From contig CAVYTU010000017.1 in NCBI GenBank assembly GCA_963771465.1, forward strand, positions 928,001 through 992,000: a DNA stretch of 64,000 nt, given 5' to 3'. This DNA comes from an uncultured delta proteobacterium. Lineage in GTDB: Bacteria > Desulfobacterota > Binatia > UBA9968. How positions within the stretch are numbered: position 1 is the stretch's first letter; each line of letters opens with the position of its first letter. The notes below the pieces were generated by a model. It had not been told where the DNA came from. It worked only from the letters and a program-made list of their open reading frames with translations, and ran no database searches. The translations under genes and the position numbers were made by a program. This document shows positions 15,646 to 22,317 of this stretch, piece by piece.

Positions 15646-16282
15646 TCGGCGGAGATCATCCCATTAGCACAGTGTTGCCCGAAGAACTGTTGAGGCACGG
15701 CGAAAATACGGCGATCTGATATTTCCCAGAAGATCGTCATAGACTAAAGACGCAAGATTTATTCACGGCGTCGATTTTTTGAAAAAATTCAGCGCCTCAC
15801 CGCCGCTACGCCGAGGCACGCCCCGAATTGAGCGAATGGCAAGTCATCAGGGCGAGAACTATCAGGGCGGCGTCAAAATCACGGCTACAGACCTGCGAAA
15901 CGTGTTTGCGACGGTCGTCATGGACAACGTAAGGAATCCGATACGGCGCGCCGACTCATGCGGCATACTTCGCTTCAGACGACGACGAAATATATGAGGT
16001 TGGTCAAAGACCGAATGCAAGATGCCGTCAAATTCTTGGGTAATTCCTTGGAGGCAAGTCTTGGGGGTAGATTTGGGGGCAACTTCCAACGTAAAAATGC
16101 TCAAAACGACATCATGCGCGAACTCCCTGCTACGGCTTGCTAAAACGCGAACCGCAGCAGGAATTCCGCGTTTCCCCTCGGTAAATCTTGTTGGCCTGGA
16201 GGGGAGAGTTGGTGGCGGTGGCGGGAGTCGAACCTGCGACGCCGCGGATATGAGCCGTCCGGTCAGGAAGAAAAGTAATTGA
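15646..16282 (+). pseudogene. Degraded C-terminal half of a tyrosine integrase, paralogous to 21285-22298
   Basis: Multi-frame fragments LIFPRRSS*TK, KIYSRRRFFEKI, ITATDLRNVFAT, MRHTSLQTTTKYMRLVKDRM match the intact integrase. Confidence 0.85.
16210..16257 (-). repeat. Displaced tRNA-Met 3' half (att site)
   Basis: 48-bp repeat of 22241-22288 with 42/48 identity; identical 21-bp core CGACGCCGCGGATATGAGCCG spanning the anticodon loop. Confidence 0.9.
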
Positions 16283-16302: not shown

Positions 16303-16326
16303 CGGGGGCCACACCTGGGGGCCATC
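16303..16326 (+). repeat. Putative integrase arm-type sites
   Basis: GGGGGCCAC-N4-GGGGGCCATC; same pair and spacing as at 22115-22137. Confidence 0.6.
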
Positions 16327-19645: not shown

Positions 19646-20284
19646 ATGGCTATGGACGATTGCTGTCAGTTAAAAGCGGGCGAACTCACGTCATTACGCA
19701 ACCAGCACCGGAACGTTCTCGTTTTCGTGTTGGTCATCAACGCCGTCTTATTCCTTGTAGAGGTTGCAGCCGGTTTGTTGGCGAACTCGACCGCATTGCT
19801 GGCTGATAGTCTCGACATGCTTGGCGATTCGCTCGTATACGGATTTAGCATGTACGTGCTTGGGCGTAGCGCGAAATGGAAGGCCAAGGTGGCGCTGCTG
19901 AAAGGCGCGATAATGGCCATGTTCGGCGCAGTCGTTCTCTTGGAAGCGGCTCACAAGACAATCGCTGGTACGGTGCCGACTGCTGAGACTATGGGAGTTA
20001 TCGGGACACTGGTGTTGCTCGGTAACGGTATTTGCTTCTTTTTGCTTTTTCGCCACCGGTCCGATGACATAAACATGCGCTCAACGTGGCTGTGTTCGCG
20101 CAACGACATCATCGCGAATGTGTCGGTGATTGTGGCCGCGATTTGGGTAAAACTCCTTGACGCGAGTTGGCCGGATATTCTCGTCGGAGTCGCCATCTCT
20201 GCTTTGTTCATGCGAAGCGCTATCACAGTGCTTCGCGACTCGCTATCGGAACTGCAAATGCGAAGGACCGCAGTCTCCGACTAG
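19646..20284 (+). CDS. Cation diffusion facilitator-type (Co/Zn/Cd) transporter, short form
   Basis: ALLADSLDMLGD, DINMRSTWLCSRND, WPDILVG; N-terminal DDCC. Confidence 0.88.
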   Translation: MAMDDCCQLKAGELTSLRNQHRNVLVFVLVINAVLFLVEVAAGLLANSTALLADSLDMLGDSLVYGFSMYVLGRSAKWKAKVALLKGAIMAMFGAVVLLEAAHKTIAGTVPTAETMGVIGTLVLLGNGICFFLLFRHRSDDINMRSTWLCSRNDIIANVSVIVAAIWVKLLDASWPDILVGVAISALFMRSAITVLRDSLSELQMRRTAVSD

Positions 20285-20341: not shown

Positions 20342-20830
20342 ATGAACAGGCGAGATTTTCTTATTCAGGGTTTTGTTTTGGCTGCTGCTGTCTCGCTGCC
20401 GGAGTTAGTCTTTGGGGCGACGCAACACGCCTACAAACTAGCGCCAACCTCAATCCTGCCGGAACAGATTAGGAAAGGCCCGGTCGAAACAAGAGATGCC
20501 TATCGCTTCGCCGTCCTAAACCGAGACGTTCTCCGCTATATTCCCTGTTACTGTGGCTGTTGGGACTCGGTTGGGCATACGAGCAACGCTTCGTGCTACG
20601 TCAAGGACAAATCTCCTATAGACAAACCGGAGTTTGATCCTATGAGCGTTGGCTGACAAATTTGCATAGACATCACGCGTGACGTGATGAAGCTGATGGA
20701 CGAAGGCAGGAGATTGAAAGACATCAGACTGCATATCGAGAAAACGCACAGTCAGAAAGGACCAGGCACCCCGACGCCAGCGGTGCCGGAGAGTTACAAA
20801 GAATTTTGGCCGGTAAGAAAGCGAGGTTAG
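20342..20830 (+). CDS. PCYCGC-domain protein with Tat signal; in-frame UGA (20654-20656) likely selenocysteine
   Basis: MNRRDFL Tat motif and IPCYCGC...GHTSNASCY. After TGA the frame continues QICIDITRDVMKLMDEGRRLKDIRLHIEK...GTPTP to TAG at 20830. Confidence 0.8.
20657..20689 (+). promoter_or_regulatory. Putative bacterial SECIS element
   Basis: Perfect 7-bp stem CATCACG/CGTGATG with loop CGTGA; loop starts after a 21-nt spacer from the UGA. Confidence 0.65.
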
Positions 20831-21284: not shown

Positions 21285-22298
21285 ATGAACAAGTTCGTAC
21301 TTAAATTTTTCGGCGAGACGACTCTAGTCGGCAACATCAAGGATGAGCAGATCAACGAGTTCATCAAGAAATATCGGCAAGGTCGAAAGCCAAAGACCAT
21401 GAAAAATATTTTCACAGACCTGAATGCGTTGCTTAACTACGCGGTGCAAAAAAAACTCTTAAAAGTGAATCCGGCAAACTTCGCCAACCGCGAACTTATC
21501 GGCAACACCAAGAGCAAAAAGCCTCAGCTTAACTTGGACGAAGTCCGAATGGCGTTGTCGGTGCTCAATGACAAGAGAGTGCTCAAGCGAGAGCGGGTAT
21601 GGTTTCTGGTCGGGATCATGACCGGTGGTCGGATGGACGAAGTAAATCGTGCGCAGTGGCCGGATGTTGATTGGACTGCGCGCGAAATCCATATACGCGG
21701 CACCAAAACCGATTCTGCCGACGCCAAGCTGCCGATTCCGCCGCCGCTGTTCGCCGAGTTGGTCGATCTCTACCGGCATAGAGAAACCTCAGACTATATT
21801 TTTCCTGGCGCGTCTTCGCAGACGAAAAATAAGAAAATCTACTCGCGCCGTCGTCTGTTCGAAAAGATACGCAAACTAGTCTTCGAACGGTACGACCGGC
21901 ATATCAAGCTTACGCCGAAAGATTTGCGCGATATCTACGCAACCGACGTGTCGGCGCTAGTTCGCGATCCGGAAACGCTCATGCACTTAATGCGGCACAG
22001 CAGCTTGACCACGACCACGAAGTATCTGCGCGGGGTAAAAGACCGCATGGTGGAAGCGGCGAAGGGCGTTGGTCAACAGTGGGTTCCGGCGCTTACTGAC
22101 GACGAAAAAAGCCTGGGGGCCACCTCTGGGGGCCATCTTGGGGTCGAAATAGTGCCTAAAAGGCCGCAAAACGCACAAAGCGACACGGCCAGATTGTCGC
22201 CGGAAAATCCGCTAACTACTCGGAATACATGGGGAAAAATTGGTGGCGGTGGACAGAGTCGAACTGTCGACGCCGCGGATATGAGCCGCGTGCTCTGA
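21285..22298 (+). CDS. Tyrosine recombinase/integrase; probably N-terminally truncated, 3' end overlaps tRNA-Met antisense
   Basis: TGGRMDE (R), GTKT (K), PKDLRD, LMRHS, TTKY (Y); stop codon lies inside the tRNA gene. Confidence 0.88.
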   Translation: MNKFVLKFFGETTLVGNIKDEQINEFIKKYRQGRKPKTMKNIFTDLNALLNYAVQKKLLKVNPANFANRELIGNTKSKKPQLNLDEVRMALSVLNDKRVLKRERVWFLVGIMTGGRMDEVNRAQWPDVDWTAREIHIRGTKTDSADAKLPIPPPLFAELVDLYRHRETSDYIFPGASSQTKNKKIYSRRRLFEKIRKLVFERYDRHIKLTPKDLRDIYATDVSALVRDPETLMHLMRHSSLTTTTKYLRGVKDRMVEAAKGVGQQWVPALTDDEKSLGATSGGHLGVEIVPKRPQNAQSDTARLSPENPLTTRNTWGKIGGGGQSRTVDAADMSRVL

Positions 22299-22317
22299 CC
22301 AACTGAGCTACACCGCC
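22241..22317 (-). tRNA. tRNA-Met (CAT), elongator-type
   Basis: GGCGGTGTAGCTCAGTTGGTCAGAGCACGCGGCTCATATCCGCGGCGTCGACAGTTCGACTCTGTCCACCGCCACCA; full cloverleaf, paired 1:72, CCA encoded (Ile2 not strictly excluded). Confidence 0.93.

Follow-up and report, generated by a model that had tools for sequence, protein, structure and literature searches.

Selenocysteine (Sec)-containing PCYCGC proteins are an already known kind, because both NCBIfam and review tables list them. NCBIfam holds the model NF041379, 'CYCXC family (seleno)protein', OS_HP4; a table in a 2022 review has the entry 'Hypothetical protein OS_HP4, UxxC' (PMC9312934), and the table of a 2026 selenoproteome review lists OS_HP4 with PF13798 and a UxxC motif (PMC13188914). 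Here we describe a gene of this kind at positions 20342-20830 of a 64,000-nucleotide (nt) stretch of DNA from an uncultured delta proteobacterium (assembly GCA_963771465.1, contig CAVYTU010000017.1, positions 928,001 to 992,000, forward strand); this whole stretch is called the window below. A first-pass annotation, made from the letters of the window, had proposed a hidden selenoprotein at this place and had cautioned that curated collections may already note Sec-containing members. NF041379 and the 2026 table bear out the caution.

The main text of the Olavius symbiont paper, which is the cited source, names OS_HP1-3 and has zero occurrences of OS_HP4 (PMC1976440). The Global Ocean Sampling (GOS) paper does not mention OS_HP4 (PMC2398784), and the main text of the BSepDB paper does not mention the family (PMC13326102). 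OS_HP4 was probably first defined in the supplements of PMC1976440 or PMC13326102, and the clade to which the window's protein belongs may already be listed there. In the portions of the literature on PCYCGC/PF13798/OS_HP4 and on selenoproteins that were searched, no function is described for the family.

The window's protein shares with NF041379/OS_HP4 the invariant CYCxC...GH...C...U/CxxC ligands, Sec at the same column, a hairpin resembling a Sec insertion sequence (SECIS) at the same codon position, and the existence of both Sec and Cys forms. It differs in that its clade has an insert, a twin-arginine (RR) leader instead of a membrane anchor, and a PTPTP tail; its hairpin also has another sequence and register (CAUCACG/CGUGA versus UACGC/UGGAC). 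The Cys-form PCYCGC proteins of Chloroflexota and Bacillota belong to the same Pfam family and length class, are extracytoplasmic, have the insert and the C-terminal helices, and are 37-50% identical. In these proteins, however, Sec gives way to Cys, the hairpin has not been preserved, position +8 holds Gln in most cases, and the neighbours are cupredoxin/COX2-like proteins, cytochrome c and Fer4_5 instead of a cation diffusion facilitator (CDF). One Cys-form protein, Parageobacillus AOT13_14730, is described as a lipoprotein whose gene lies beside that of an Fe3+-binding protein, in the passage of PMC13068155 that concerns it.

Two further comparisons are more remote. The periplasmic domain of CcmH (PDB 2hl7, 2kw0) is a small helical extracytoplasmic protein with a redox-type CxxC at a helix start; however, the two resemble each other only weakly (Z 4.4, 11% identity) and are unrelated in sequence, the CYCGC/His/Cys cluster is missing from CcmH, no Sec form of it is known, and we do not claim membership. 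In the Sec-containing E1-E2 cation ATPase and the CobW-related selenoprotein, as tabulated in the two reviews (PMC9312934, PMC13188914), Sec likewise replaces the first Cys of a metal-type CxxC, but the folds are unrelated, and the window's protein is small and soluble or lipid-anchored, not a transporter or a GTPase.

A probable selenocysteine codon within a PCYCGC gene

Positions 20342-20830 most probably are one gene, encoding a 162-residue selenoprotein of the PCYCGC/CYCXC family; we put the probability of this reading at roughly 0.9. Comparison of sequences demonstrates the recoding signal, the family membership, the presence of the Sec machinery and the island structure described below, and selenium would be incorporated at residue 105 (U105). 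The features of the gene are as follows.

20342..20830, plus strand: Sec-containing PCYCGC gene, 162 codons and a TAG stop; the PF13798 match spans the TGA
20342..20419, plus strand: N-terminal leader MNRRDFLIQGFVLAAAVSLPELVFGA, containing a twin-arginine motif and a hydrophobic stretch; assigned by motif conservation, with a low predicted local distance difference test (pLDDT) score here in the AlphaFold2 model
20543..20560, plus strand: P68-C-Y-C-G-C73 motif; all 18 aligned sequences have C69, Y70, C71 and C73
20654..20665, plus strand: U105-Q-I-C108, the UxxC motif, with TGA 20654-20656 as the predicted Sec codon; TGA or Cys in all motif-bearing homologs
20671..20689, plus strand: putative SECIS hairpin, 7-bp stem CAUCACG/CGUGAUG with apical loop CGUGA at 20678-20682; assigned by covariation and the bacterial SECIS (bSECIS) criteria

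The open reading frame (ORF) opens with ATG 20342 and reaches an in-frame TGA at 20654-20656, where gene callers halt and report a 104-residue protein. Beyond this TGA the frame remains open for 57 further codons and ends with TAG 20828-20830, two bases before the ATG of the downstream gene (20833). The read-through product has 162 residues; residues 104-108 are G-U-Q-I-C, in the context ...MSVG-U-QIC-IDITRDVMK.... The first-pass annotation had given the same ORF, TGA, 57-codon extension and TAG, and a perfect CATCACG/CGTGATG stem with a CGUGA loop starting 14 nt after the UGA; all are present at their coordinates.

The product matches PF13798 (PCYCGC) with 81.8 bits (6.4e-23), against a gathering cutoff of 25 bits. 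Residues 34-147 align to positions 38-150 of the 153-position profile in one stretch that crosses the TGA, and U105 falls in an invariant Cys column, the correspondence for which the first-pass annotation had proposed this alignment. When 18 homologs are aligned, the columns that prove invariant are Y54, C69, Y70, C71, C73, G78, H79, C85, U/C105 and C108. The TGA therefore occupies an invariant Cys column, at the first position of a CxxC. Constraint at the protein level persists past the TGA, with codons that vary synonymously and amino acids that are kept from U+12 to U+43.

That the DNA holds two genes, one for a 104-residue protein ending at the TGA and one for a 48-residue ORF starting at GTG 20684, is scarcely credible. 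The ORF 20684-20830 does appear in the mechanical ORF list, but the Cys-form homologs run on as a single protein, the Pfam alignment crosses the TGA as one stretch, and GTG 20684 falls in the 3' arm of the hairpin.

Recurrence of the TGA among homologs

Of 101 related genomes, 35 gave a match. Thirty-one loci were translated and 26 of these contained a homolog, with TGA at the Sec column in 24 and Cys in two (L043, L050); the other five (L046-L049, L051) contained an unrelated long ORF without the motif and were excluded from all counts. Among 84 named species-representative loci, 33 had TGA, 42 had Cys, and nine lacked the motif by the pattern used. These two sets of counts are not summed, because both draw on one species collection and overlap; L061 and L076 may duplicate the sequences of L026 and L036. 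The Cys forms aligned at the TGA column include L043, L050, P0005 and the 42 named loci. Some loci contain a second TGA, which is the true stop and follows ...PTPTPPVP. In the window's own genome, a second gene copy on contig C13 is 70% identical and keeps the TGA.

Sec forms were found in metagenome-assembled genomes (MAGs) labelled Binatia, Syntrophobacteraceae, Chloroflexota and others, and also in Bacillota isolates. A phylum-wide survey with one query yielded matches at E <= 1e-5 in six of 401 genomes, a count in which 'not found with this query' is not absence. In a quick tree, the window's clade comprised 21 rows, all of them Sec forms (support 96); the clade is tight yet spans MAGs of several phylum labels. 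This spread would fit transfer, and MAG binning errors could inflate it. The Sec/Cys label requires at least nine changes over the quick tree, six of which are forced by well-supported branches.

Soil, rhizosphere and sediment metagenomes contain parts of the stretch as short contig pieces only, and our verdict does not use them. The RNA-library contig X18, from a relative, covers 20639-20725 with 10 differences and has the TGA unchanged; it has 15 letters upstream, so it is not counted as bridging. The RNA-library contigs X17 and X19 cover the Met-rich gene described below and are no proof of transcription.

A covarying hairpin downstream of the TGA

The stem joins CATCACG at 20671-20677 to CGTGATG at 20683-20689, pairs perfectly and begins 14 nt past the TGA. 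For bSECIS elements the published limits are a loop of 3-9 nt, a stem of 4-16 bp, a G in the first two loop positions, a spacing of 16-37 nt and a minimum free energy (MFE) no higher than -7.5 (legend to Fig. 2 of PMC13188914). The window's hairpin fits this model, with a loop of 5 nt, a stem of 7 bp, a spacing of 21 nt and -8.8 kcal/mol, and at this energy it is the centroid structure. A search of the window against Rfam at gathering thresholds returned two tRNAs and nothing else.

In 35 Sec forms, 95.4% of the cells are paired, and five of the seven pairs show changes in both partners (21 cells). The score for covariation, 0.328, compares with 0.128 for shuffled alignments and was reached by none of 500 shuffles; sliding the register of the structure lowers the pairing to 10-63%. 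The 41 Cys forms behave differently. Their alignment omits row L106, which the pattern registered three residues early. Here 63.4% of the cells are paired, which is not above shuffles (500 of 500 reach it), one of the seven pairs has changed on both sides, and the covariation score of 0.097 (0.122 when shuffled) is reached by 499 of 500 shuffles. The mean free energy of the hairpin is -8.7 kcal/mol in Sec forms and -5.6 kcal/mol in Cys forms (Mann-Whitney p = 3.6e-6, which is overstated as the sequences are related).

All long-form Sec forms keep the 5-nt loop C-G-(U/G)-G-A at one codon position, and the loop positions C, G, G and A are invariant among Sec forms. The stem occurs in compensated versions, namely AUCACG...CGUGAU (encoding ITRDVM), AUCGUG...CACGAU (IVRDTM), AUAGCG...CGCUAU (IARDAM), UAGCC...GGCUA (IAREAK) and GGUGGCA...UGCCAUC (VARDAI). 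At U+8, where the CGN codon of the loop falls, 33 of 33 Sec forms have Arg; the Cys forms have Q in 27, R in 7, H in 4, L in 2, V in 1 and D in 1, the D being the misregistered L106. Among 12 close relatives, the major-codon fraction is 0.97 for the five hairpin codons, compared with 0.64 for 48 other conserved codons, a single one of which is invariant. The SECIS element would lie within the codons of a conserved helix, with its pairing maintained through paired amino-acid swaps and an Arg at +8 that is fixed in Sec forms only. Short-form relatives have a different hairpin in the same place, either UACGC/UGGAC/GCGUA or GAGGCGC/UGGAY/GCGUCUC.

The significance of the element comes from three observations: the TGA recurs at one column, compensatory changes occur in Sec forms only, and synonymous sites are frozen in the hairpin codons only. 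The same observations bear on the possibility that the TGA is a nonsense mutation, which would leave a pseudogene or a truncated 104-residue protein and make the hairpin a by-product of the conserved ITRDVM peptide. Gene callers do halt at the TGA, the fold of the single sequence is not above shuffles, and the hairpin codons do encode a conserved peptide. However, the TGA stands at the same column in 24 of the 26 related-genome homologs and in 33 of the 84 further loci, across several phyla, and the frame downstream of it is kept with synonymous variation. Compensatory swaps in the stem even exchange amino acids (ITRDVM to IVRDTM or IARDAM, for example), and Cys forms with a similar peptide lose the pairing. 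We regard a nonsense mutation as extremely improbable. The first-pass annotation had called for independent homologs with TGA at the same column; these turned out to be many and to share the covarying hairpin, whereas the Cys forms do not maintain it.

The Cys form L104 retains the complete hairpin CAUCACG/CGUGA/CGUGAUG and is sister to the Sec form L119 (support 99). It appears to have exchanged Sec for Cys recently and to keep the hairpin as an RNA relic.

Selenocysteine machinery of the host

On contig C14 of the window's genome (6.9 Mb in 19 contigs), selA, selB and selD lie next to one another, and all three score above curated cutoffs (614, 359 and 376 bits, respectively). The selD gene carries its own in-frame TGA, reading ...AAG-U-AAK.... 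A tRNA-Sec with anticodon TCA scores 76.7 bits, also above the curated cutoff. The check for sel genes proposed in the first-pass annotation therefore found selA, selB, selD and tRNA-Sec all in this genome, and its reading of the UGA as Sec is supported by the recurrent TGA column, the covarying hairpin and this machinery. We propose that UGA 20654-20656 would be decoded as Sec, not as a stop: during translation, SelB and Sec-tRNA(Sec) would be recruited by the hairpin with loop CGUGA that lies at 20671-20689, at a spacing of 21 nt from the UGA.

On the minus strand of the same contig, a translation-GTPase-like ORF (L007, C14:13177-14205) has a weak match to the selB model (85.7 bits) and one in-frame TGA.

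Several points weigh against the selenoprotein reading. The support for selenium incorporation is entirely sequence-based. A 76-nt stretch with the hairpin has an MFE of -13.8 kcal/mol (z = 0.08), and 108 of 200 shuffles fold equally well or better; as the window's fold alone is unremarkable, the case rests on the comparison between sequences. The Sec form L031 (the same sequence as L065) keeps the TGA despite a weakened stem with two mismatches, and the public predictions P0020, P0021 and P0024 have Leu, Arg or Trp at the Sec column. Finally, the window's protein scores 58.9 bits with the equivalog model NF041379 OS_HP4_CYCXC, below the cutoff of 90.

The Leu, Arg and Trp codons of P0020, P0021 and P0024 are each one base from TGA, and P0021 represents 28 member sequences. 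Sequencing errors, decayed gene copies or variants that function without Sec could account for these predictions.

The scores with NF041379 separate two groups. Members of the window's clade reach 52-63 bits in five of five cases tested (four of four without the unpublished L033), the four other members scoring 52.5-63.3, whereas eight of eight short-form relatives reach 107-128 bits against the cutoff of 90. Judged by these scores, the window's protein is homologous to NF041379 yet outside the equivalog as curated. Its clade is distinguished by an 11-residue insert between C85 and U105, the RR leader and the PTPTP tail.

Public predictions stop at the TGA

A search of a public protein collection gave 490 matches at E <= 1e-10. 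Among the 120 listed matches, 116 cover just 63-64% of the query because they stop at the TGA; most of these shortened predictions are 101-108 residues long, and a minority are longer via upstream starts. All five rows with NCBI as their source are among the shortened predictions. Those of the shortened predictions that carry a name are called either 'hypothetical protein' or 'protein of unknown function with PCYCGC motif'. The four longer predictions consist of one true Cys form and the three with Leu, Arg or Trp at the column. The gene is thus a selenoprotein gene that annotation routinely misses, and the curated NCBI model does not reach the window's clade. A lower cutoff for NF041379, or a clade-specific model, would recover hundreds of proteins.

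Predicted structure and export

The AlphaFold2 model of the protein is helical (pLDDT 86, predicted TM-score 0.77), with U105 placed just before a helix at 106-120. A sequence search of the PDB found a ferredoxin as the sole match (E = 0.55, not significant). Foldseek against the PDB returned nothing at E <= 0.001; its top rows were kinases with TM-scores near 0.2, which we took as noise. The top row of a wide structural search was CcmH 2hl7_A (Z 4.4, root-mean-square deviation 3.4, 74 residues aligned), and CcmH was at rank 8 in Foldseek. We assign no fold, because the wide search tops out at Z 4.4. The helical mature domain would bear a cluster of soft ligands composed of C69, C71, C73, H79, C85, U105 and C108.

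All ten full-length close homologs in alignment A1 carry the motif RR-x-[FL]-[LV], and the window reads N-R-R-D-F-L-I. Substrates of twin-arginine translocation (Tat) have a consensus motif of the S/T-R-R-x-F-L-K type with a hydrophobic region after it. Two TatC genes occur in the genome (235.7 and 225 bits). Counting against Tat, the TAT_signal hidden Markov model (HMM) gives the window 8.1 bits (E = 3.7), below its cutoff of 22.7; the homologs L024 and L028 score 20.1 and 15.1 bits. Short models such as TAT_signal often miss true leaders. The first-pass annotation had called the protein Tat-exported. The conserved RR-x-F-L motif and the two TatC genes speak for that claim and the HMM score does not; because this score is below the cutoff, we consider export by Tat likely, not established. 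The RR-type leader would send the protein out of the cytoplasm.

In the leaders of four of the ten close homologs (L024, L025, L028 and L030), the RR motif is accompanied by a Cys where a lipobox would have its Cys (for example ...LAGC), and these proteins may be Tat-routed lipoproteins. The window's own leader has no Cys at the lipobox position. The gene lgt adjoins two loci (L032, L034).

A small integrative island

The first-pass annotation had placed the gene on a mobile island, and an integrase, a tRNA-Met and a 57-nt direct repeat were found there. The gene order is CDF exporter, Sec gene, Met-rich protein, tyrosine integrase and tRNA-Met, the last on the minus strand.

16201..16257, no strand: left direct repeat, 57 nt, a remnant of the tRNA 3' half and likely the left attachment (att) site; 84% identical to 22232-22288
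19646..20284, plus strand: CDF exporter, 212 residues, with an N-terminal MDDCC motif; Pfam Cation_efflux, 77 bits
20833..21084, plus strand: Met-rich protein, 83 residues, with a signal-like N-terminus; 65% identical to the gene beside the paralog
21285..22298, plus strand: tyrosine recombinase (integrase), at the island end; Pfam Phage_integrase, 49.6 bits
22232..22288, no strand: right direct repeat, 57 nt, overlapping the 3' half of tRNA-Met
22241..22317, minus strand: tRNA-Met (CAT), the integration target, with its 3' half within the right-hand repeat

The 57-nt repeats duplicate the 3' half of the tRNA and bracket about 6 kb; no complete tRNA was called at the left repeat (16201-16257). 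The GC content dips to 0.47-0.52 inside the island, compared with 0.53-0.57 to its left. The Met-rich protein matched no Pfam family, and in the protein atlas only unnamed clusters at 0.90-0.91, a range reachable by chance. A second direct repeat, 16304-16326 and 22115-22137 (23 nt, 91% identical), lies just inside both ends in an order opposite to that of the 57-nt repeat, and might be the remnant of an older integrase end.

The same genome contains a paralogous module (L022, contig C13:136694-137188 and flanks) with the order Sec-PCYCGC, Met-rich, CDF. The two copies of the module share 58% identity in the CDF, 70% in the PCYCGC protein and 65% in the Met-rich protein. The L022 module adjoins genes for GFA and glutathione S-transferase, and no integrase is adjacent within the 3.5 kb examined. 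The three genes (CDF, Sec-PCYCGC and Met-rich) appear to travel as a cassette on the ~6-kb integrase/tRNA-Met island, and this location suggests that selenoprotein genes move as cargo between Sec-using hosts.

A CDF gene is adjacent in 11 of 16 close loci (9 of 13 without unpublished genomes), and a class-I S-adenosylmethionine (SAM) methyltransferase gene in 6 of 16 (6 of 13). MerF, YnfA, a MIP channel and Lgt were each seen once or twice at the close loci. The unpublished genomes G041, G035 and G005 contribute to the counts over the 16 close loci, to one row of the NCBIfam scores and to the codon table, and are never the sole basis of a claim. In a tblastn search of the 84 named loci, the Sec loci yielded the CDF in 7 of 33 cases and the SAM methyltransferase in 12 of 33, and none of the 42 Cys loci yielded either.

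Three minor observations concern these neighbours. The short CDF proteins (~212 residues; window 19646-19663 and homologs in L022-L034) have the conserved start M-D-(A/D)-C-C-(E/Q), a possible soft-metal site, and no match to Pfam ZT_dimer. The SAM methyltransferase (Methyltransf_11/UbiE-like, about 205-280 residues) occurs beside members of the window's clade only (L023, L024, L027, L029, L031, L032 and the 12 of 33 named Sec loci). In L031, a 161-residue protein encoded on the minus strand (1978-2463), just downstream of the Sec gene, carries a MerF mercury-transport domain at its C-terminus along with several CxxC-like motifs.

Gene neighbourhoods and possible function

We scanned 107 flanking ORFs at 60 distant loci (18 Sec, 42 Cys). 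A cupredoxin/COX2-like gene was present at 16 of the 60 loci, usually as the next gene downstream, cytochrome c at nine, a Fer4_5 membrane protein at nine and DUF1573 at four. SCO1/SenC was found at two loci, both with Sec forms in Bacillota, a P-type ATPase at two (one with HMBD and YHS domains) and DUF1775 at one; a Caa3_CtaG gene adjoins one short-form member. Of the 60 loci, 34 had one or more neighbours from the set of cupredoxin, cytochrome c, Fer4_5, SCO1, ATPase and DUF1775.

Together with the window's Met-rich protein and exporter, these distant neighbours suggest that, outside the cytoplasm, the PCYCGC selenoprotein handles copper or another thiophilic metal, a role to which we would give even odds. 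The selenolate/thiolate cluster would most likely bind or hand on a thiophilic, Cu(I)-like metal at the outer face of the membrane, the selenoprotein working alongside the adjacent CDF exporter and the Met-rich periplasmic protein, and metal binding could include a selenenylsulfide redox step. The neighbourhood data provide a testable lead to copper or another soft metal outside the cytoplasm.

Metal handling has to be set against the following. Gene neighbourhood is the sole source of the functional proposal, and 26 of the 60 distant loci have none of those neighbours. The cupredoxin, SCO1 and ATPase neighbours come mostly from distant, mostly Cys-form clades and not from the window's clade, and cytochrome c and Fer4_5 are not copper-specific. 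For CDF exporters, Zn, Cd, Co, Fe and Mn are better-known substrates than Cu. Every structural match is weak, with Z below 5 throughout.

The main rival to metal handling is a thiol/selenol redox role, in which a true selenoprotein would act as an extracytoplasmic thiol-disulfide (selenenylsulfide) oxidoreductase and keep partner cysteines reduced, for example those of cupredoxin/CuA sites. CcmH acts in this manner on apocytochrome c, and Sco proteins on CuA. In the structural model the UxxC appears at the N-terminus of a helix, CcmH 2hl7_A is the top structural row (Z 4.4; rank 8 in Foldseek), which is a lead only, and SCO1, DsbD_TM and cupredoxin neighbours occur. However, the structural scores are within the chance range for helical proteins, the five extra invariant soft ligands (C69, C71, C73, H79, C85) exceed what a redox CxxC needs, and next to the window's gene stand a metal exporter and a Met-rich protein instead of redox partners. 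We consider an oxidoreductase a possibility with the odds against it.

A true selenoprotein could also carry a cofactor assembled in the cytoplasm, such as an Fe-S cluster, and transfer electrons to neighbouring redox proteins. This would explain the twin-arginine leader, which is conserved among the homologs, and would employ the seven Cys/Sec/His ligands; the window's genome has two TatC genes, Fer4_5 and cytochrome c neighbours occur at nine distant loci each, and the sole PDB sequence match is a ferredoxin (E = 0.55). That match, however, is not significant, no Fe-S family was matched in Pfam and NCBIfam searches of the protein, and short-form members have a membrane anchor in place of the RR leader. 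Lipoproteins usually take the general secretory route, not Tat. Parageobacillus AOT13_14730 is a lipoprotein by the description in the part of PMC13068155 devoted to it. A cytoplasm-assembled cofactor is improbable by our assessment.

A wider form of the metal-handling proposal is that the PCYCGC/CYCXC proteins are an unrecognised extracytoplasmic copper/thiophilic-metal class, serving as chaperones or reductases for cupredoxin/CuA centres and exporters, with the window's clade as a mobile three-gene detoxification cassette. We put this forward tentatively and as rather unlikely in its full extent. If it were true, the cassette would work only in hosts that already have the Sec machinery, and integrative islands would carry a selenium-dependent trait from phylum to phylum.

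DUF1573 lies directly upstream of Cys-form PCYCGC genes in L094, L102, L107 and L109. DUF1573 (pfam07610) appears as a selenoprotein family in review listings and is called OS_HP2 in the relevant part of the GOS paper (PMC2398784). Two 'Olavius symbiont' families are therefore neighbours of each other in some genomes.

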